A DNA stretch of 64,000 nt, taken from the NCBI GenBank assembly GCA_963790025.1, contig CAWBMP010000002.1, positions 608,001 through 672,000 on the forward strand. Reading direction: 5' to 3'. Under the pieces are notes generated by a model. That model did not search any database and was not told where the DNA came from. It worked only from the letters and a program-made list of their open reading frames with translations. The translations under genes were made by a program, and so were the position numbers. Shown in pieces: positions 35,196-57,732 of this stretch. The stretch's first letter is position 1. Each line of letters begins with the position of its first letter. Source of the stretch: Nitrospirota bacterium (lineage in GTDB: Bacteria; Nitrospirota; Thermodesulfovibrionia; Thermodesulfovibrionales; Dissulfurispiraceae).

Positions 35196-36986
35196 TCAGA
35201 TAAAATTCTGTGTCTTCGTTTTGCCGAGCCGGTCGAAAAGCTCGTTGAATTTTGTGAGCCTGCAGCGTGGACAATATTTTTTGCAGAACTCGGCATCCAG
35301 CACCATCCCGGATTGTTCATTTCTCTTTGTCCCCAACCAGATATCCCTGAAGGATTCAGTGTTGATGTTTCCGATAGGTTCCATCCATTTGTGTATATTG
35401 AGCCGGCCGCACAAATATACGCTTCCGTCGGAAGCAATAACAGTGGTAAGGCTGTGCACCAAACATGGTCCGCCCGCATTCCCTTCAGTCACGTTCTGGG
35501 ACATCCCATCCGTGATGACCGAAAACCTGGAGCCTCTCTGATATCTACCCAGATACGAGAGGTCGACCTTGACGTCCAGCTCCGGATGATCGATAACAGG
35601 TCTGAACTGTATGTAGTTTACTCCAAAATCCCTGATCCTGAGAATGAGTGATTCGAGGTTCCCGATATTCTTCGAGGTGACCACATAGCCGACTCCGACA
35701 GTCGCCTTCGACGAACACAGGCGTTTTATATTGCTCATGACCCTCTCAAAGGTATCGCTGTTCTTCAGTAGCCGCTGTTCTTCAGGATTGGATGCGTCAA
35801 GACTGACACGGACCCATTCAAGTTTATCCGCAATGTGGCTTTTTATTTTAGTGCTGCCGTTGGTGATAAGACCGACTCCGAGACCGTTGTCACATGCAAG
35901 CGTGACGACATCGTCAAAATTCTTGTGAACTGTGGGTTCCCCTCCTCCTTCAATGACTATTCCACGTGTGCCTCCCTGCTGCAATTCGGGGAAAAGTCTC
36001 CTGAGGATACTAAAATCCATGTCCTTGTCCATGCGAGCCCTCAAATCCTTGTCGGAGCACCAAATACAGTTCAGATTGCAACGGTTTGTGAGCGAGAGTT
36101 CAACGCTTATAGGGTAGGTCAGATCAGGTTCGGAGTTATTATGTTTTTTCAAAGCTGCTATTTTTTCAGGGAACAAATATAGTTTTTCTAGGCCGACTTC
36201 CTGTACAGCGGCATCCTTGTTGCTCTCGGCCAGGACCGGGTTATTATCAAGCATCCCGATAATATTATCTGTATAGGGGCGTTCAAGATTTCTGAGGATA
36301 AAGTCTATAAGTTTCAAATCTTTTTCGGTGTCAAAACAGACCTTGTAATGCGGTCTTGGATTTGCATATAAGAATTTATGTGTGTTAAATTTCGTCTCGT
36401 TTTGATGAAAGTAAAGCATCCCTGCTTCGCGCTGTTCGGGAGTCAGTCTTTTCCTGTTGAGTTCCAACAGGAGATTTTTTTGCACGACATCGCATCCCGT
36501 CCCGTATATGGTCCCGGCGAAATACTCGTTGTAGCTGAATTCAAAACCGCCATCCAGATGGTTCCCTATCAAATCATTCGCCAGGAGTGGATCGAACAAA
36601 GGATAATTTCCGCTGATCTTCAATATGGTTTTCCCCTGAAAGTGTTGTACCGCACCGCATAATCTGGAGATCACATCAGATTCACTACCCCGGAAACTCT
36701 TTATATTTAACCTCTCAGCCTCCCTGACCAGTGGGTCATCATTAGGGTTGTCCGTAGAAGCGAGAATTATTTCCGACACATATTTCACCGCCCTAACTCT
36801 GGAGACTATGTGCTCTAAAACCGTTTTTCCGGCGATCTTAACCATGCTCTTGCCGGGGAATAAATTGGATTTATGCATAGCCTGAATAACTGCACACACT
36901 TTTTTTCTTGTCTTACCTGCCATATTCTTGCCTGTCAATTCCTCGACTGTCTCGATCTGTTCAGCGCCCATTTTTCCCATTTTCAA
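35196..36986 (-). CDS. Fusion: SpsF-like cytidylyltransferase + radical SAM/SPASM domain
   Basis: N-half IQA...FPGK, GSESDV, NYP, DTEKDL; C-half CNLNCIWC, GGGEP, C..C..GNI..IW..C..CPRC; start may be 36923. Confidence 0.85.
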   Translation of the reverse strand: MKMGKMGAEQIETVEELTGKNMAGKTRKKVCAVIQAMHKSNLFPGKSMVKIAGKTVLEHIVSRVRAVKYVSEIILASTDNPNDDPLVREAERLNIKSFRGSESDVISRLCGAVQHFQGKTILKISGNYPLFDPLLANDLIGNHLDGGFEFSYNEYFAGTIYGTGCDVVQKNLLLELNRKRLTPEQREAGMLYFHQNETKFNTHKFLYANPRPHYKVCFDTEKDLKLIDFILRNLERPYTDNIIGMLDNNPVLAESNKDAAVQEVGLEKLYLFPEKIAALKKHNNSEPDLTYPISVELSLTNRCNLNCIWCSDKDLRARMDKDMDFSILRRLFPELQQGGTRGIVIEGGGEPTVHKNFDDVVTLACDNGLGVGLITNGSTKIKSHIADKLEWVRVSLDASNPEEQRLLKNSDTFERVMSNIKRLCSSKATVGVGYVVTSKNIGNLESLILRIRDFGVNYIQFRPVIDHPELDVKVDLSYLGRYQRGSRFSVITDGMSQNVTEGNAGGPCLVHSLTTVIASDGSVYLCGRLNIHKWMEPIGNINTESFRDIWLGTKRNEQSGMVLDAEFCKKYCPRCRLTKFNELFDRLGKTKTQNFI

Positions 36987-37299
36987 TAATGTCTATATCG
37001 TTCTTTAATTCTTCTATCTCTTTCTTAAGCAAATCATATTCATTAATTTTCACTTTCAGAAACTCATATGTTAATTCCACTTTGCCTTTCATTCCCTTCG
37101 GGGTGAGAATATACATGTACGCCGATTTATTTCTTGAATTCTTGAACCTCATTGTCTTTATTAACCCTTTATTCAAAAGGGCGTTCAACACGTAGTTTAC
37201 CTTTCCCAGGCTTAGACCAAGCCTTCTTGAAAGGTCCCGCTGGGAGAGGTTAGCATTCTCGGATAATTCTTTCAGGAGTTTTAGCTGGTATTCGTCCAT
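36961..37299 (-). CDS. MarR-family EPS-associated transcriptional regulator (winged HTH)
   Basis: SQRDLSRRLGLSLGKVNY..L..KGLIK, Y.YILTPKG, heads the glycan operon. Confidence 0.88.
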   Translation of the reverse strand: MDEYQLKLLKELSENANLSQRDLSRRLGLSLGKVNYVLNALLNKGLIKTMRFKNSRNKSAYMYILTPKGMKGKVELTYEFLKVKINEYDLLKKEIEELKNDIDIIENGKNGR

Positions 37300-37749: not shown

Positions 37750-38100
37750 TCAATCGACTTCGAGCCCTAAGTGCAAATGGATAGCCCTCTCCAATTCCTT
37801 CAACCTTTCACGAGATATCGCCCCTGTATATTTAAATAGCCTTTTTTTATCTACCGTCCGTATTTGATTGGCCTTGGCTTTGCTATCGTTATTCAACCCG
37901 CCCTCCCGAGAGGAGATCAGTACCTCAAAGGGATATACTTTATCCACGTTTGAGGTGACAGGCACAACTGTTACAGTGTCAGCATGGGCATCATTGATGT
38001 CATTTGAAACAACTGTATCCGGTCTCGTTTTGCCTATCCTTGAGCCGAGAACCGGGTCAAGTCGTACCATATATATCCCACCTCTTTTGATTTTAGTCAA
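37750..38100 (-). CDS. MazF/PemK family endoribonuclease toxin, possibly attenuated
   Basis: RGGIYMVRLDP..GSRIGKTRP, VSND, VVPVTS, NQIRTVDKKRL; TTG start overlapping antitoxin stop. Confidence 0.8.
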   Translation of the reverse strand: MTKIKRGGIYMVRLDPVLGSRIGKTRPDTVVSNDINDAHADTVTVVPVTSNVDKVYPFEVLISSREGGLNNDSKAKANQIRTVDKKRLFKYTGAISRERLKELERAIHLHLGLEVD

Positions 38101-39784: not shown

Positions 39785-39802
39785 CAGTTACTCCTTAAAA
39801 AC

Positions 39803-40247
39803 CAGGTTAAGGTTAAGGTTAAGGCTAAGACAAAAACCCTTAGTCATTTTTTTGATTCCCGTAAAGTTAAGATTATTTTATTAATTTCTTTATAGATGCT
39901 ACATAAGTCATTTTCCATTTCGTTTACCTGTTTTGCATTAATATAGCCTACTCTTTTGCCATATTCCAAATGGCTTTGGGTCTCTGCTAAAGACCCTCTC
40001 GCCATATAATAAAAATTTATTTTGTCTAAGGTATGATTTCTTCCAAATGCTTCCGCAATATTCGCGGATACGCTAAGAGCAGAACGTCTCATTTGTGATG
40101 TAAATCCATAATCTTCATTACGGGGTAAATCTGCCGTAACTTTGTGTACCTTTTCAGCTATCTCCATCGCCTTTTGCCATATCGGCATCTCTTTAAAAGT
40201 TTTAAACATGCTGCAGTTAGCTAAACCTAAACCTTAGCCTTAACCTG
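39803..40247. mobile_element. Four-helix-bundle cassette 1 bounded by inverted 27-bp hexamer arrays
   Basis: Left CAGGTTAAGGTTAAGGTTAAGGCTAAG (39803-39829); reverse complement of right arm (40221-40247) CAGGTTAAGGCTAAGGTTTAGGTTTAG, 23/27 match; mobility inferred. Confidence 0.55.
39844..40209 (-). CDS. Four helix bundle protein (23S rRNA intervening-sequence protein / Avd-like)
   Basis: WQKA, LP..E.YG.TSQ.RRSA.S..ANIAE.FGR, F...ARGSL.E. Confidence 0.9.
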   Translation of the reverse strand: MFKTFKEMPIWQKAMEIAEKVHKVTADLPRNEDYGFTSQMRRSALSVSANIAEAFGRNHTLDKINFYYMARGSLAETQSHLEYGKRVGYINAKQVNEMENDLCSIYKEINKIILTLRESKK

Positions 40248-40254
40248 CTTTATC

Positions 40255-41676
40255 TTACCTTTCATATTTATCCTCAACTCTCACAATGTCGTCTTCTCCC
40301 ACGTATTCCCCATTCTGCACTTCAATAATTTCCAGATGGACTCTGCCGGGATTTTCAAGTCTGTGCATGGTTGATTTCGGTACATAAACCGATTCATTTT
40401 CATGTATAAGCATTTCTTTATCGCCTACCGTCACTTTGGCAGTGCCTTTTATCACAACCCAATGCTCCGATCGGTGGTAGTGCATCTGGTGGCTCAGTTT
40501 TTCATTCGGATTTACCACTATCCTCTTTATTTTGTAACGAGGGCCGTCCTCAAGAATGGTATAGCTGCCCCACGGCCTGTAGGTTGTGACATGCTCCTCC
40601 ACTTCAGTTCGTGAAGCCTCATGCAGTCTGTTAACGGCTTCTTTTACTTTCTGAGCCTCCCCTTTTCCAGCCACCAGTATGGCATCATCCGTTTCAACAA
40701 TGAGGCAATCCTTAAGCCCTATAGTGGTGATCTGGCGCTTGTTGCCGAGGATAAGCGTCCGCTTTGTGTCGATTGCAAGAACATCGCCCTGCTTCACGTT
40801 GTCGTCTTCATCCTTGTCGAGCACATCGTAGACCGAGTCCCAGGAGCCTATATCATTCCAATACAAGTCGAGAGGCATCACCACGACCTTGTCTGATTTT
40901 TCCATGACCGCATAATCTATTGAAATGTCGGGCATCTGTGCGAAGCCGGACAGCATGTCGTCGAATCCCTGAACCAGCAATCCCTGTATGTCCGGCGCAT
41001 GCCTGGCCATCTCCCCGATCATGGTTTTTATGCTGAAGGCAAACATCCCTGAATTCCAGTAATAGGAGCCGTCAACCAGATAGCTCCGGGCGGTTTCCAT
41101 GTCAGGCTTTTCCACAAATTTTTCGACCGTGTAACAGTCTGCCCCGTGATCCTTGCCTTCACCTTCGCTTTCGCGCCTACTGTTGGTGCCTATACCTATG
41201 CCTTTTCCTGCCTTTATATACCCGTATCCGGATTCGGGTCTGTCAGGCTTTACTCCGAAGGTCACAATATGGCCTTCGCGTGCTATTGTCTCGGCCAGCT
41301 TCATGTATTCTGCAAATTTGTCATCCGGTCGAATAACATGGTCCGAAGGACACATGAATATGACTTCTTCTTCACTGCAGCCGAGCTTTTCCAGGCAGTA
41401 TTTAACACCGAGCGCTGTTGCCGGAGCGGTATTTCTGCCCGCAGGTTCAAATATTAAATGTTTAATATCGGGGATATCGGCTTTCACATAGAACTTATAA
41501 TTCCCGTTAGTGACAATAACAACATCATCTTTAGTCATCACCTTCAGGAGCCTTTCAGCGGTCTGGCGCAGAAGCGATTTATCACCGGTTATCTTTAAGA
41601 ACTGTTTGGGATAGTTTCTTCTCGACAAGGGCCAAAGTCTTGTCCCGCCACCGCCGGCTAATATCAATGCCTTCAT
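40255..41676 (-). CDS. manC: Mannose-1-phosphate guanylyltransferase / mannose-6-phosphate isomerase
   Basis: LAGGGGTRLWPLSR..PKQF, GRNTAPA, FVEKP, WNSGMF, SIDYAVMEK, WNDIGSW, RPWG cupin. Confidence 0.95.
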   Translation of the reverse strand: MKALILAGGGGTRLWPLSRRNYPKQFLKITGDKSLLRQTAERLLKVMTKDDVVIVTNGNYKFYVKADIPDIKHLIFEPAGRNTAPATALGVKYCLEKLGCSEEEVIFMCPSDHVIRPDDKFAEYMKLAETIAREGHIVTFGVKPDRPESGYGYIKAGKGIGIGTNSRRESEGEGKDHGADCYTVEKFVEKPDMETARSYLVDGSYYWNSGMFAFSIKTMIGEMARHAPDIQGLLVQGFDDMLSGFAQMPDISIDYAVMEKSDKVVVMPLDLYWNDIGSWDSVYDVLDKDEDDNVKQGDVLAIDTKRTLILGNKRQITTIGLKDCLIVETDDAILVAGKGEAQKVKEAVNRLHEASRTEVEEHVTTYRPWGSYTILEDGPRYKIKRIVVNPNEKLSHQMHYHRSEHWVVIKGTAKVTVGDKEMLIHENESVYVPKSTMHRLENPGRVHLEIIEVQNGEYVGEDDIVRVEDKYER

Positions 41677-41688
41677 AAGACGACACCA

Positions 41689-42165
41689 CAGGCACAGGTA
41701 AAGGTAGAGGTATAGATCAACGCAAAGTTGTAAATCATCATTTCTTTGACCCCCTCAACGCCATCACAATTTTGTTCAAATTATTGTAAATATAAATCAA
41801 ATGCTTTTCTAATTCTTCTGCTTGTTGAGCATCAATATAACCAACTCTCTTGCCGTACTCTAAATGACTTTGAGTCTCTGTTAACGATCCTCTAGCTATG
41901 TAATAAAAGTTTATTTTGTCGGATGTATGATTTCTTCCAAATGCCTCTGCAATATTAGCTGATATGCTAACAGCAGACCTTCTTATTTGTGAAGTAAATC
42001 CGTAATCCTCTTTTCGAGGCAATACTTCAGTAAATTTATACACTGTTTCAGCAATCTCAATAGCGTCTTGCCAGATCGGCATTTCTTTGAAAGTTTTATA
42101 CACTTCCTTCTTTGCCTTTACTTTACCTCTACCTCTACCTCTACCTTTACCTTTACCTTTGCCTG
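41689..42165. mobile_element. Four-helix-bundle cassette 2 bounded by inverted hexamer arrays
   Basis: Left CAGGCA CAGGTA AAGGTA GAGGTA TAG (41689-41715); right arm reverse complement CAGGCA (AAGGTA)3 (GAGGTA)3 AAG (42165-42121); mobility inferred. Confidence 0.55.
41738..42103 (-). CDS. Four helix bundle protein, paralog of 39844-40209
   Basis: Same motifs; 90/121 identical residues by ungapped hand count. Confidence 0.9.
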   Translation of the reverse strand: MYKTFKEMPIWQDAIEIAETVYKFTEVLPRKEDYGFTSQIRRSAVSISANIAEAFGRNHTSDKINFYYIARGSLTETQSHLEYGKRVGYIDAQQAEELEKHLIYIYNNLNKIVMALRGSKK

Positions 42166-43575
42166 AGCCTTTGCCCTGTCCAGCTCATCTTCCAGAAATG
42201 CCTTGTATCCGGCAAGGCTCTCTTCGTCCTTTGCTTCGGCCCTCATAACGATAACAGGCTGAGTATTGCTCGTCCGTATGAGTCCCCATCCTTTTTCAAA
42301 TAACACCCTGATTCCGTCAATCAAATTGACATCGATAATCCTGTATGGCGCATTGCCGTTTTCTTTATGGGTAATGAGGTGGGATATCACATTGTCCACA
42401 ACCTCTTTCTTCCTGTCTTCAGCGCACTCATGTCTGATTTCAGGGGTGTATGACATACGGGGAACATCGGAAAGAAGCTCCTTTATGCCCTTCCCCCTTT
42501 TCTTCATGATCTCGACAAGCCTGAAAGTGGTGTATAGTGCGTCATCGTATCCGAAATAGTTGTGAGCGATAAAGATATGCCCGCTGAATTCTCCGGCAAG
42601 AAGAGCGCCCTCTTCCTTCATTTTTTGTTTTATGAGGGAGTGCCCGGTCTTCCACATAATGGGAACACCACCGTGTTTTTCTATTGCATCGAACATTACC
42701 TGAGAGCATTTTACGTCACCTATCACTTTGGCCCCGGAGTTTTTGCTCAATAGTTCCCTGCCCAGGATTATCATGAGCTGGTCTCCCCAAACAATGTTTC
42801 CCTCTCTGTCAACAACGCCGATCCTGTCAGAGTCTCCATCATATCCGACGCCGATATCCGCTCCCGACCGCTTCGTTTCCTGGATCAAATCCTGTAAGTA
42901 TTCGACTACTGTCGGATCAGGGTGGTGATTGGGAAATCTTCCGTCAGGCTCGCAGTAAAGCGGGACCACATCACATCCCATACCACTCAGAATTTCCGGT
43001 GCGACCATGCCGGCGGTGCCGTTTCCTGCATCCACAACTATTTTCACCTTCCTGAACCCTGAATCGTTAAGATATGCAAACTGTTTCAGCATAAATTCTT
43101 TATAGTCGCTTACTATATTGTATTTCTCTATCTGCCCCTCTACCTCTACTTTTATCTCTTCCTCTGCTTTTATTATCTCTTTCAGTCTTTGGATAGCGCT
43201 GCCGTGAATGGTATCTTTCCCCACACTGACCTTAAAGCCGTTATATTCAGGAGGGTTATGACTTCCTGTGACCATGATCCCGCCATCGAGGCCGAGATGA
43301 TAGAGTGAAAAATACTGAACAGGTGTCGGGCAGACCCCTATATCATATACATCGAGGCCCGAGGACACGATTCCTCTCATAAGCCCCGCAGCAAGCTCAT
43401 CGGAGCTTAGCCTCACATCTTTTCCAACACTTACACGTTTTGCCTGAGGTATACATGATTTTACCATTGAGCCAAACGCCTTCCCGATAAGCACTGCCAT
43501 ATCAGCGGTAAGGTCTTTACCTGCTATTCCCCTTATATCATATTCCCTGAAAATCGTATCTGATAACATAGTCAA
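42118..43575 (-). CDS. Phosphomannomutase/phosphoglucomutase (AlgC/ManB)
   Basis: FREYDIRG, TGSHNP, DGDSDR, GEFSGH, RTSNT; C-terminal AKVKVKVEVEVEVK comes from the repeat array. Confidence 0.95.
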   Translation of the reverse strand: MTMLSDTIFREYDIRGIAGKDLTADMAVLIGKAFGSMVKSCIPQAKRVSVGKDVRLSSDELAAGLMRGIVSSGLDVYDIGVCPTPVQYFSLYHLGLDGGIMVTGSHNPPEYNGFKVSVGKDTIHGSAIQRLKEIIKAEEEIKVEVEGQIEKYNIVSDYKEFMLKQFAYLNDSGFRKVKIVVDAGNGTAGMVAPEILSGMGCDVVPLYCEPDGRFPNHHPDPTVVEYLQDLIQETKRSGADIGVGYDGDSDRIGVVDREGNIVWGDQLMIILGRELLSKNSGAKVIGDVKCSQVMFDAIEKHGGVPIMWKTGHSLIKQKMKEEGALLAGEFSGHIFIAHNYFGYDDALYTTFRLVEIMKKRGKGIKELLSDVPRMSYTPEIRHECAEDRKKEVVDNVISHLITHKENGNAPYRIIDVNLIDGIRVLFEKGWGLIRTSNTQPVIVMRAEAKDEESLAGYKAFLEDELDRAKAQAKVKVKVEVEVEVK

Positions 43576-43580
43576 ATATA

Positions 43581-43752
43581 AACCACAGAGTACCCAGAGG
43601 AAAGCGACTTTTAGGTTAAAAAACCAACGTCAAAGCCGGGAGATCACTGAGAATAAACAAAACAACTTTAGCGGCCTTCTCTGTGTCCTCCGGAATCTCT
43701 TTGTGTTTTTGTTTTTAATAATATTAAGATTTTCTCTGTGTTCTCTGTGGTT
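43581..43752. repeat. Palindromic element with ~9-mer CACAGAG-type arms
   Basis: AACCACAGAG (43581-43590) / CTCTGTGGTT (43743-43752) with further CCAGAG, CTGAGA and CTCTGTG units inside. Confidence 0.7.
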
Positions 43753-43767
43753 AACTTTCATCTCCTT

Positions 43768-44837: not shown

Positions 44838-45329
44838 TTATTTCTTTTTCAGGAGTTCTTTTTCAATCTCAACACGCGCCTGGTACTCTATTGTACTGAG
44901 CAGCACTACAATACGGTCCTTGTCTTTCATCTCCCGCTCAAAGATCCCTATGAATCCTGTGAAAGGGCCCTCGGTTATCTCCACTTTATCACCGACTTTA
45001 ATATCCGGGCTTATGACAATAAGCCCCTCCTCATTCATTCGTGACTTGATAATACTGATTATGTCTTCGCTTACAGGCCAAGGGATCCCTTTATTCCCTA
45101 TAATGCCCCTTACGCCGCGCGCATATTTAATCAAGTGATACTGGCGGAACGGATCGAATTTAGCAAACAGATAGTTGGGGAAAAAAGGCCGGATAACGTG
45201 CTCATACTTACCGCGCACGAGCCTTTTCCTTCGCAGTTTCGGATTGAACACTTCAATCGAAGCACGGGCAAGGTTTTCTTCTGCTCTATCCTCCTGCTTC
45301 GGCTTTGTATAAATAGCATACCAGTTCAT
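44838..45329 (-). CDS. NusG paralog, RfaH/UpxY-type transcription antiterminator
   Basis: WYAIYTKP.QE, PFFPNYLF, ARGVRGIIG, KOW domain GDKVEITEGPFTG; heads a polysaccharide precursor operon. Confidence 0.85.
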   Translation of the reverse strand: MNWYAIYTKPKQEDRAEENLARASIEVFNPKLRRKRLVRGKYEHVIRPFFPNYLFAKFDPFRQYHLIKYARGVRGIIGNKGIPWPVSEDIISIIKSRMNEEGLIVISPDIKVGDKVEITEGPFTGFIGIFEREMKDKDRIVVLLSTIEYQARVEIEKELLKKK

Positions 45330-45444: not shown

Positions 45445-46983
45445 ATGTTATTCCCGGACTTTAATGAATTCAAGACATTGACCCGCCAGGGCAACCTGAT
45501 TCCCGTCTATAAGGAGATACTCGGGGACATCGAGACACCCGTGAGCGCATTTCTTAAGCTCGGGAAGAAGCCGTCCTTTCTTTTGGAGAGTGTTACGGGC
45601 GGCGAGAAATGGGCCCGATATTCATTCCTCGGCATCGATCCTGCCCTGACCCTCAGATGTACAGGCAAAAAGGTAACTATCCAGGAAAAGAAAAAAACTT
45701 CCCATTTAGAAACCGATGATCCGCTTTCCGTAATAAAGGACATCTTGTCACAGTTTACACCTGTCGAAACAGCCGGTCTGCCTCGGTTCTCCGGCGGTTT
45801 TGTCGGCTATATTGGATATGATGTGGTTAAGTTCTTTGAGCGGCTCGCCGATTCCCCGAAACCGACGTTGGACATGCCTGACATTTTTATGATGCTCACC
45901 GATACAATGCTGATATTCGATAACCTCCGGCAGACCGTCAAGGTCGTGTCAAACGTACATATAAAAGACGGGCAAAAGGCGAAGGACGAAAGGCTAAAGG
46001 AAGAAGATATTGAGAAGGCTTACCTGGACGCAGAAAAGCGGATAGATAAGATAATAAAGAAGTTAGAGGTTGGAGGCAAGAGGTTTGAGGCAAAAAGCAC
46101 AACCTCCAACCTCCAACCTCTAACCTCCAACTCCTCTTCTGTTGATTTCTCTTCCAACTTTACGAAAGAGGGCTTTATGGACGCTGTTGTTAAAGCCAAA
46201 GAATATATAATGGCAGGCGATATATTGCAGGTGGTCCTTTCACAGCGGTTTGAGACAGAGGCCCCTTTCAACCCGTTCGATCTCTACCGTGCTCTCAGGG
46301 TGATTAACCCTTCACCCTATATGTACTACCTCGATACCGGCGATGCGCAGCTTGTCGGCTCTTCACCTGAAATACTCGTCCGGCTGGAAGGCGAAAAAAT
46401 AACGCTCAGGCCCATTGCCGGGACGCGAAAAAGGGGTGACAACGAAGATGCCGACAAGGCGCTTGAGGAAGACCTCAAGAAAGATCCCAAAGAAATGGCG
46501 GAGCATATAATGCTTGTCGATCTGGGAAGGAACGATGTCGGGAGGGTTTCCGAAATAGGCTCGGTCAAAGTGACTGACGTGATGAATGTCGAACGCTACA
46601 GCCATGTGATGCACCTTGTCTCCAACGTTGAGGGGAGGCTCAAAAAAGGACTCGATGCCATTGATGTATTTAAAGCATGCTTTCCCGCCGGCACGGTAAG
46701 TGGTGCTGCAAAGGTAAGGGCCATGGAGATCATAGAGGAGCTGGAGCCTACAAAGCGCGGACCGTATGCCGGCTCGGTCGGGTATTTCAGCTATTCGGGC
46801 AATATGGACATGTGTATTACCATACGAACGCTGATTATAAAAAACGGTAAAATATTTGTTCAGGCGGGAGCAGGCATTGTGGCGGACTCTGCTCCTGAGA
46901 ACGAGTATACCGAGACAGTCAACAAGGCGATGGCGATGATGAAGACCGTGGAGTTTTTTGAAAAAAACTCAGGTAAAGGTTAA
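45445..46983 (+). CDS. trpE: Anthranilate synthase component I
   Basis: DIETP, FLLES, RYSF, QVVLSQ, NPSPYMYY, GSSPE, PIAGT, EHIMLVDLGRND, PAGTVSGA. Confidence 0.95.
   Translation: MLFPDFNEFKTLTRQGNLIPVYKEILGDIETPVSAFLKLGKKPSFLLESVTGGEKWARYSFLGIDPALTLRCTGKKVTIQEKKKTSHLETDDPLSVIKDILSQFTPVETAGLPRFSGGFVGYIGYDVVKFFERLADSPKPTLDMPDIFMMLTDTMLIFDNLRQTVKVVSNVHIKDGQKAKDERLKEEDIEKAYLDAEKRIDKIIKKLEVGGKRFEAKSTTSNLQPLTSNSSSVDFSSNFTKEGFMDAVVKAKEYIMAGDILQVVLSQRFETEAPFNPFDLYRALRVINPSPYMYYLDTGDAQLVGSSPEILVRLEGEKITLRPIAGTRKRGDNEDADKALEEDLKKDPKEMAEHIMLVDLGRNDVGRVSEIGSVKVTDVMNVERYSHVMHLVSNVEGRLKKGLDAIDVFKACFPAGTVSGAAKVRAMEIIEELEPTKRGPYAGSVGYFSYSGNMDMCITIRTLIIKNGKIFVQAGAGIVADSAPENEYTETVNKAMAMMKTVEFFEKNSGKG
46058..46134. 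repeat. Heptamer palindromic element inside trpE
   Basis: AGAAGTT AGAGGTT GGAGGCA AGAGGTT TGAGGCA ... AACCTCC AACCTCC AACCTCT AACCTCC AACTCC. Confidence 0.75.
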
Positions 46984-47079
46984 GGTATAGGTAAAGTTAA
47001 AAAAGGAAGTCCGAGGCAGAGGCAAAAATATAAAGAGATTTTTGGTTTTCCTCTTAACCTCAACCTTTACCTTTACCTG
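46970..47079. repeat. Gene-less hexamer inverted-array element between trpE and trpG
   Basis: CAGGTA AAGGTT AAGGTA TAGGTA AAG; right arm reverse complement CAGGTA AAGGTA AAGGTT GAGGTT AAG; contains the trpE stop. Confidence 0.75.
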
Positions 47080-53660: not shown

Positions 53661-54996
<1,336 letters not shown>

Positions 54997-55005
54997 ATTT
55001 TGTAC

Positions 55006-55088
55006 GCCGGTGTGGTGGAACGGCAGACGCGACGGACTCAAAATCCGTTGTCCTTCGGGACGTGAGAGTTCAAGTCTCTCCACCGGCA
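55006..55088 (+). tRNA. tRNA-Leu (anticodon CAA), CCA not encoded
   Basis: GCCGGTG/CACCGGC acceptor stem, ACGGA-CTCAAAA-TCCGT anticodon arm, long variable arm, GAGAGTTCAAGTCTC T-arm. Confidence 0.95.
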
Positions 55089-57271: not shown

Positions 57272-57559
57272 TTGCCACCCAAGTCAGCACCTAAAAAGAA
57301 TCTATCCGCCATAAAAAAAGCCCGCCAGGATGAAAAGAGGAAACTGCGCGGACAGTCTGTACGGGCGAGCGTAAAGACCCAAACCAAAAAAGTAGAGGCC
57401 CTGCTGTCCAGCAGCAACAAAGAAGAGCTTAACAAGACTTTGAAAGAAGCCATCCGCACTGTCAGCACTGCGGCATCGAAAGGAATAATTCATAAGAATA
57501 CCGCATCCAGAAAGATTTCAAAGCTTGCAAAAAAAGCACACGCAGCAATAAACCAGTAG
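57272..57559 (+). CDS. rpsT: 30S ribosomal protein S20
   Basis: SAIKKARQ, KGIIHKNTASRKISKL; AAAGGAGG SD before TTG 57272. Confidence 0.93.
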   Translation: MPPKSAPKKNLSAIKKARQDEKRKLRGQSVRASVKTQTKKVEALLSSSNKEELNKTLKEAIRTVSTAASKGIIHKNTASRKISKLAKKAHAAINQ

Positions 57560-57732
57560 GCAGCAAGAAGTAAGCAGTAAGCAGCAAAGTCTGAAAAAAC
57601 ACTGGATTCCCGCCTTCGCGGGAATTACCACACTTTTATAAATCTGTTTTTCTTTTGCTGCATACTGTTTGCTGCCTGCAGGCTGCTTGTTTTCTGTTTT
57701 CTGCTTGCTTCTTGCTGCCTACTGCCTGCTGG
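57552..57732. repeat. AGCAGTA-family heptamer palindrome with inner ATTCCC-N8-GGGAAT motif between convergent rpsT and holA
   Basis: ACCAGTA GGCAGCA AGAAGTA AGCAGTA AGCAGCA (57552-57586); TGCTGCC/TGCTTCT/TACTGCC units (57657-57732); inner motif 57606-57625. Confidence 0.7.

Follow-up and report, generated by a model that had tools for sequence, protein, structure and literature searches.

The closest described relatives of the elements considered here are the intervening sequences (IVSs) of bacterial 23S ribosomal RNA (rRNA) genes. The Coxiella burnetii 23S IVS with S23p combines an IVS stem, ribonuclease III (RNase III) cleavage, and heptamer repeats before its open reading frame (ORF); one strain carries a large ORF deletion, and the S23p protein was not detected in vivo (PMC4990558). 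Insertions termed 23S_rRNA_IVP occur in rRNA genes of the candidate phyla radiation (PMC11270868). The locus examined here lies in a 64,000-nt stretch of a Nitrospirota bacterium (assembly GCA_963790025.1, contig CAWBMP010000002.1, positions 608,001 to 672,000), the whole of which is called the window. It contains two four-helix-bundle genes of the same protein family, which was originally noticed within rRNA, each gene being enclosed by inverted hexamer arrays and placed within a sugar operon. These units probably represent a family of small selfish cassettes devoid of transposase, made of a purine-rich repeat arm, a four-helix-bundle gene, and the complementary arm.

Short repeats between bacterial genes have been described independently. 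GGGAATC repeats are found in Xanthomonas and Nostoc; those of Xanthomonas include 70-75 inverted pairs in convergent arrangement, and were reported as conserved for the most part in two species (PMC4692102). The TAACTGA repeats of Beggiatoaceae have been proposed by MacGregor to be regulatory sites (PMC4679880). Like the present elements, both are intergenic, flanked by co-oriented genes, and close to stop and start codons; unlike them, they are interpreted as quadruplex or regulator sites, and the phrases searched for a link to four-helix-bundle genes have 0 occurrences in these two papers. A further point of comparison is Avd, the accessory protein of diversity-generating retroelements (DGRs), whose pentameric barrel bears a positive charge, carries RNA, and activates a reverse transcriptase (bioRxiv 10.1101/2023.10.23.563531).

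Just two PF05635 genes, those of the window, are present in the genome that carries it (G000; 3.45 Mb, completeness 98.8%) (Table 1). They encode 121 aa each, share 90 of 121 residues, and lie within an epimerase-pmm-manC-ugd operon, where their neighbours encode a phosphomannomutase-like protein, ManC (TIGR01479), and UDP-glucose dehydrogenase. Their guanine-plus-cytosine (GC) content is 0.344 and 0.347, against 0.466-0.477 in pmm, manC, and ugd, so that the first-pass annotation was right in describing two AT-rich paralogues at the pmm/manC and manC/ugd junctions. The paralogues are old (synonymous divergence, dS, ~2.2) and under constraint (ratio of nonsynonymous to synonymous divergence, dN/dS, 0.07), and gene 2 has a counterpart, 71% identical, at the equivalent junction of a same-genus genome (G003). 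Both proteins pass the cut-offs of TIGR02436 (121 and 120 bits; cut-off 24) and PF05635 (123 and 122 bits; cut-off 33.8), and fall far below that of the Avd model (26.7 and 22.7 bits; cut-off 80). The predicted structure (predicted local distance difference test score 95) is a four-helix bundle that matches Xcc0516 (2GSC; Z 19.0, root-mean-square deviation 1.2, 113 residues aligned), BT_0352 (Z 15.9), and Avd (Z 14.8-14.9), with unrelated helical bundles at 12.6 and less and no HEPN-type nuclease-like fold among the top 50 matches. The relation to Avd stated in the first-pass annotation is, therefore, upheld at the level of the modelled fold. Invariant residues include Q39, S46, N50, E53, R57, and E76. 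The window proteins are probably pentameric, by analogy with the homologue structures 2GSC and 2RLD (5 chains each) and with a title cited in PMC10053308.

Table 1. Cassettes and gene-less hairpins of the window (window coordinates).
Feature	Position	Strand	Remarks
Cassette 1 downstream arm	39799..39829		hexamer array, pyrimidine-rich on mRNA strand; ends 18 nt before ugd start
Four-helix-bundle gene 1 (TIGR02436/PF05635)	39844..40209	-	121 aa, pI 9.2
Cassette 1 upstream arm	40221..40251		purine-rich on mRNA strand; begins 7 nt past manC stop
Cassette 2 downstream arm	41687..41728		ends 12 nt ahead of manC start
Four-helix-bundle gene 2	41738..42103	-	121 aa, GTG start, pI 8.8
Cassette 2 upstream arm	42120..42177		translated as pmm C-terminal tail
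Gene-less decayed hairpin, octamer-like arm family	43576..43767		between epimerase gene and pmm
Empty hexamer hairpin	46970..47079		trpE-trpG junction
Empty hexamer hairpin	54842..54996		immediately ahead of tRNA gene (55006-55088)
Empty heptamer hairpin, another arm family	57554..57731		

The arms of cassette 1 are complementary at 84% over 31 nt, and those of cassette 2 at 89% over 27 nt (41689-41715/42139-42165), extendable to 41687-41728/42120-42161; the upstream arm of cassette 2 lies within the pmm reading frame (42121-42177). The inverted arms had been described as NAGGTW units starting from CAGG. All four arms do begin with CAGG, at or near the outer edge, and the unit has to be widened to NAGGYW, AGGC units being present too. 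Predicted folds of the mRNA strand have the two arms paired and the ORF looped out (z = -3.9 and -5.5), as had been anticipated, and 0 of 100 shuffles is as stable as the native cassettes; terminal inverted repeats forming a long stem, as in IVSs, are present in both predicted folds. No intrinsic terminator is called at the four arms by a scan limited to loops of 3-8 nt. Contigs of run X1, which is possibly the source sample, match pieces of the locus without differences, and no joint deleting a cassette, as DNA excision would leave, occurs among them. Run X3 contains next to none of the locus words; one of its contigs (depth 2.5) joins 39830 to 40224 via 17 other letters, most likely represents the empty hairpin of another organism, and was not used.

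The association of arms and gene holds well beyond this genome. Homologue loci were sampled by similarity to the query (80, of which 3 with short flanks were left out), and some may come from genomes that are also among those compared below; the closest named homologues belong to Nitrospirota. Inverted arms scoring at least 26 surround 51 of the 77 loci and none of 427 shifted controls, and periodicity on both sides is seen at 46/77 loci against 1/427 controls; at 10/77 loci, the direct orientation scores as well. This enrichment around family members elsewhere, one of the checks proposed in the first-pass annotation, supports the arm-gene-arm unit, and, together with the array excess over simulations given below and the X1 matches, rules out chance or an assembly artefact. 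The ORF is under purifying selection (dN/dS 0.06-0.17 in 20 unsaturated of 28 pairs). Cassette genes are co-oriented with the host operon, specifically with the upstream gene at 95/96 loci and the downstream gene at 87/96, for a background of ~69% in G000 obtained with a different ORF caller.

Arm type follows protein phylogeny. A FastTree tree was built from 95 intact proteins (9 unlabelled), including some from 29 more distant family members of relatives; 13 broken or short sequences and 3 without match were left out. On one side of the tree, which spans more than ten phyla, 65 rows are hexamer, 3 are heptamer, and 7 are unlabelled; on the opposite side, 12 rows are heptamer, 4 are octamer, 2 are nonamer, and 2 are unlabelled. 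Hexamer arms are, thus, confined to one clade (65/68 labelled rows there, 0/18 outside), with 8 changes against 25.7 when shuffled; the unity of the hexamer group follows by construction from the similarity sampling, its arm type does not. In a set of 201 genomes from the class, 11 (five families) have a hexamer-clade gene; 8 of these contain empty hexamer hairpins, against 25/190 of the genomes without the gene. At least 7 overlapping matches occur in 8/8 gene-bearing hairpin genomes against 3/190 gene-less ones, a threshold that was set afterwards and a comparison in which kin are not independent.

Gene-less hairpins, which the first-pass annotation had not reported, greatly outnumber the filled ones. 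G000 contains 156 NAGGYN arrays, while three simulations with an order-4 Markov model gave 9, 12, and 10. With a limit of 700 nt, the arrays of the genome make up 51 plus/minus pairs (50 after removal of one nested double count), minus/plus neighbours numbering only 4. Two of these 50 heads-out pairs enclose a gene and 48 are empty hairpins with a short AT-rich spacer, a ratio of ~24 : 1. According to a crude ORF caller, 32 pairs are located between co-directional genes, 9 between convergent and 3 between divergent genes, and 6 inside ORFs (2 of which are really 23S copies), so that 44/50 are intergenic or overlap gene ends; many lie in ribosomal-protein and other core operons. Co-directional elements start at a median of 4 nt past the stop codon, in agreement with the proposed spread to gene 3' ends, and end at a median of 12.5 nt before the next start. 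Outer ends have in common an A-run followed by (C/A)AGG, with the A-run and CAGG in 57/100 ends. Most arms have 4-5 units (72/102, degenerate units counted), and the unit subtype is common to both arms of an element (rho 0.62); arm matching in the best register is weak (0.643 against 0.613 shuffled, p 0.03). The AT-rich spacers of empty pairs match each other over no more than 11-16 nt, and a genome-wide search for gene remnants in spacers gives only short, chance-level matches. Beyond hexamers, a general periodicity scan of G000 yields 317 arrays (period 7: 164; period 6: 80; period 8: 36), many as inverted pairs, and the purine-rich arm comes first in 32/32 adjacent 7/8-mer pairs. One heptamer-armed element (contig coordinates C2:471150-471330) encloses only the 5' end (~23 codons) of a four-helix-bundle gene (E 0.0025), and represents a deletion intermediate.

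Comparison with same-genus genomes, whose DNA is ~80% identical to G000, reveals filled, empty, and bare states at both window junctions, the other check that had been proposed. The pmm-manC junction is filled in G000 and in one copy of G003 (contig C8), and carries an empty hexamer hairpin in G001, G002, G004, and G006; no element is present there in G009, in the other G003 copy, or in any of the 8 loci from other genera that show the junction. The loops of G001, G002, and G004 retain the first codons of the gene, and that of G006 the sequence that follows its stop in G003; these intermediates point to internal gene deletion as the route to empty hairpins. The manC-ugd junction is filled in G000, empty with hexamer arms in G003, with heptamer arms in G004 and G006, and with octamer-like arms in G002, and bare in G009. 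Elsewhere in the window, the hairpin ahead of pmm is similar in G001 and absent in G002, G003, G004, G006, and G009, while the trpE-trpG junction has a heptamer hairpin in G002, an octamer one in G004, and none in G003, G006, and G009. Three regions, picked as element-rich in G000, provided 41 orthologous junctions that allowed scoring in 4 or more of 6 genomes. A firm hairpin is present somewhere at 17 of them; 15 of these are bare elsewhere, 1 is occupied in all, and 7 show two or more unit lengths among species. The clearest inserts sit precisely in the gap that separates the stop codon from the Shine-Dalgarno sequence, and the four-helix-bundle gene itself is located at different junctions in relatives. 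Sites are, thus, gained, lost, and replaced. That the hexamer arm might find Shine-Dalgarno sites through base pairing was considered and dropped, because unrelated 7- and 8-mer arms occupy the same places. Other palindromic intergenic elements, without short-period repeats, are also seen at some of these junctions (rfaH-epimerase in G004, and in G006).

Two explanations without mobility can be considered at this point. The hairpins may constitute a host regulatory network, in which a domesticated RNA-binding protein acts on evolved sites tuning translational coupling, mRNA stability, or processing, and regulates itself through its own arms. The strict placement between stop codon and ribosome-binding site, the purifying selection on the protein, and the many sites in core operons would all suit such a regulator. 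It is, however, improbable, given that only 1/17 junctions with a hairpin has one in every genome scored, that unit length is swapped at 7/17, that the gene changes junction, that a copy resides within 23S rRNA, and that G000 holds well over a hundred 7-/8-mer arrays for only two PF05635 genes, both of the hexamer type. Alternatively, slippage together with fold-back repair could have generated the arms on the spot at AT-rich junctions (as terminators or stabilisers), with nothing mobile as a unit. Their nature as degenerate tandem arrays of variable length and the unit subtype shared within an element, as local homogenisation would produce, agree with this origin, which nevertheless fails to account for a single hexamer surrounding a single protein clade across more than ten phyla, for gene remnants in loops, and for the constant order of purine-rich and pyrimidine-rich arms in 7/8-mer pairs; with no terminator-like site called at the four arms (loops of 3-8 nt), it is very improbable.

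The link with rRNA IVSs is provided by G000 itself, in which one hexamer pair is present twice, identically, in both 23S genes (C2:711157-711243 and C4:1569985-1570071). The insert of 109 nt replaces a 6-nt loop near RF02541 positions 283-288 (cmscan on fetched loci), and is predicted to form an almost perfect hairpin (z -13.2). This domain I loop, which we take to be that of helix 15, is a candidate IVS site besides helices 9, 25, and 45. Among 30 loci, it bears repeat arms scoring at least 12 in 5 (6-mer in G000 and G002, 7-mer in G186 and G212, 8-mer in G200), a short hairpin in 6, and extended stems with weak or no period in 18, 1 locus being mis-anchored; none of the 30 has a filled cassette with the family ORF. 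Sporadic presence among relatives, as in IVSs, is, thus, found at mRNA junctions and at the 23S loop. None of 109 homologue loci examined is located in rRNA, and the first-pass statement that the family is encoded within 23S IVSs holds for a minority and not as a general claim. The best reading is that rRNA IVSs are the rRNA-landing subset of a family of hairpin cassettes without transposase. A decayed hexamer hairpin is also found between two tRNA genes of one rRNA spacer (C2:711710-711790); the spacer of the other operon is without tRNAs.

The favoured model, that of a selfish cassette family, comprises six steps. The cassette would land in transcribed DNA where a hairpin is tolerated, be it the gap separating a stop codon from the next Shine-Dalgarno sequence or a loop closed by a helix of a stable RNA; the elements are observed at such sites, and their presence and absence among relatives suggests landing. 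Having no promoter of its own, it would be read in the sense direction from the host operon. The basic, probably pentameric, Avd-like protein would then recognise the repeat unit of its own arms, as the coupling of clade and motif and the homologue structures suggest; some 4-5 units per arm are compatible with one unit per pentamer subunit, without demonstrating it. In the transcript, the arms are predicted to pair and loop the ORF out, and RNase III, the gene of which is present in G000, could cut the stem as in rRNA IVSs. The insert would be nearly neutral, because such a cut would leave each neighbouring cistron its stop and its ribosome-binding site. An enzyme borrowed in trans would make copies of the protein-bound cassette at new sites. 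If the model is correct, an RNA intermediate with a borrowed reverse transcriptase is the preferred route, though at less than even confidence; a single-strand DNA hairpin handled by an HUH/Y1 enzyme comes second, and it and host recombination or repair are each unlikely when taken singly. Internal deletion of the gene would finally leave an empty hairpin, later lost or replaced by another arm family.

Several observations weigh against this model. The only ORF of the cassette is PF05635, and no cognate transposase is encoded. PF00078 reverse transcriptases have no match in G000 or G002, the hairpin-richest of the close genomes; 16/41 relatives do have a reverse transcriptase, these two not being among them, which speaks against a simple retro route. 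No recent jump is caught, because near-identical dispersed copies are absent and the window genes are old paralogues, and exact insertion ends are blurred, because the compared genomes are only ~80% alike. By the pattern used, empty hairpins are missing from 3 of the 11 genomes in which a hexamer-clade gene occurs, and G178, G214, and G025 have 8-27 hairpin matches with no hexamer-clade gene found. The coupling of clade and motif is equally expected from mere co-inheritance of arms and gene, co-orientation and the position between stop and Shine-Dalgarno sequence could reflect selection after random insertion, and unit-by-unit matching of arms in a fixed register shows no excess (0.517 against 0.512 shuffled). 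Finally, the lack of recent identical copies counts against a simple HUH route, and so does G001 (88% complete), in which no Y1 transposase is found despite its many hairpins.

This last point also bears on another explanation, which considers the hairpins as non-autonomous elements of the type of MITEs (miniature inverted-repeat transposable elements) or of the hairpin-forming doublets of repetitive extragenic palindromic (REP) sequences (REPINs). They would be moved by an unlinked Y1 or REP-associated tyrosine transposase (RAYT), the four-helix-bundle gene being passenger cargo. G000 does have Y1 (HUH) transposase-like matches in 11 places, the outer end of the elements is conserved, and their geometry (~100 bp, inverted ends, variable spacer, extragenic) resembles that of REPINs (bioRxiv 10.1101/2021.07.10.451892), as does the combination of a rare gene with many non-autonomous hairpins. 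RAYT is, however, an HUH tyrosine transposase fixed at one locus (same source), whereas the repeat-flanked gene here is PF05635, has no catalytic family match, changes site, and crosses phyla, and its arms are tandem arrays, not REP palindromes. Target-site duplications show no excess over shuffled partners (2.76 against 2.70 nt, 51 pairs; a 2-3 nt or eroded duplication is still compatible), as the first-pass annotation had noted along with the absence of reverse transcriptase. Spacers are mutually unrelated, and passenger cargo is not expected to be one family in most loci, under purifying selection, and with clade-specific arms. With no Y1 found in hairpin-rich G001, this explanation appears even less probable than a regulatory network. 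Two tandem Y1 matches lie at the right edge of the window (C2:671964-672302 and 673191-673529). GxxExxY/PD-(D/E)XK helper proteins (PF13366) are associated with such repeats; G000 has no match to PF13366.

Compared with described systems, the cassettes work like an IVS freed from rRNA, or like a REPIN system without transposase. They share with ORF-bearing 23S IVSs the protein family, its position inside a stem of terminal inverted repeats, and the low GC content, with an empty copy in a 23S loop. Unlike rRNA IVSs, both window cassettes reside in an mRNA operon, and all 109 homologue loci examined lie outside rRNA. Here, only an empty sister hairpin, found in the two 23S genes, has an rRNA location, and its site belongs to domain I (close to model position 285) and not to helices 9, 25, and 45. 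Unlike the Coxiella IVS, empty copies amount to dozens per genome, and the ORF is under purifying selection, whereas it is described as decaying in Coxiella (PMC4990558). The cassettes differ from insertion sequences and MITEs in that gene-bearing copies encode no cognate transposase and that the spacers of empty pairs give no sign of near-identical dispersed copies. The fold is that of DGR Avd (4DWL, 8UB7), but identity to it is 12-13%, and no reverse transcriptase, template repeat, or variable repeat accompanies the window proteins. The cassettes, thus, fail defining tests of insertion sequences or MITEs, REPIN-RAYT systems, and DGRs. They are a variant of the ORF-bearing IVS kind; should the protein turn out to recognise its arms and to mobilise them, they would be categorically new. 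In the literature covered, which contains few subscription papers, no paper was found joining TIGR02436/PF05635 to repeat arms outside rRNA. Overall, what the first-pass annotation had observed is confirmed, and its interpretation is partly supported.

Other features accompany these elements. An RfaH/NusG-paralogue antiterminator gene stands at the head of the sugar operon (window 44838-45329 (-)), and a MazF-like toxin gene and a MarR-type exopolysaccharide regulator gene lie 3' of ugd (window 37750-38100 (-) and 36961-37299 (-)). Repeats also occur in frame within genes, such as a heptamer hairpin within trpE (window 46060-46135), at which DNA matches to G003 and G009 are interrupted, and a lone hexamer-like arm within manC (window 41148-41210), the same-genus orthologues of which are ~10 codons shorter. 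Hexamer arrays at C4:90717-90867 lie within a long ORF (89470-91260), and are apparently translated.

The locus ties together three open items, namely what the very common TIGR02436/PF05635 protein does, how rRNA IVSs originated and spread, and why hexa- and heptamer repeat pairs lie between bacterial genes. With a cassette in an mRNA operon and a 23S hairpin in one genome, and relatives in the filled, empty, and absent states, the idea is directly testable. An extended version, more doubtful than probable, would see here a widespread mobile class of bacterial elements with a single gene. Its product, an Avd-like ring, would read the repeats of its own arms as a code (each subunit taking one unit, and each clade having a specific 6-, 7- or 8-mer) and hand the element RNA over to a borrowed enzyme, to be inserted at transcribed sites. 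Both rRNA IVSs and the excess of 6-8-nt repeat pairs in bacterial genomes, otherwise unexplained, would then be landing products, and the Avd of DGRs a domesticated offshoot. If each protein clade does bind its own repeat and the cassette moves, these cassettes would constitute a mobile element without known mobility enzyme, and provide a set of orthogonal protein-repeat pairs.

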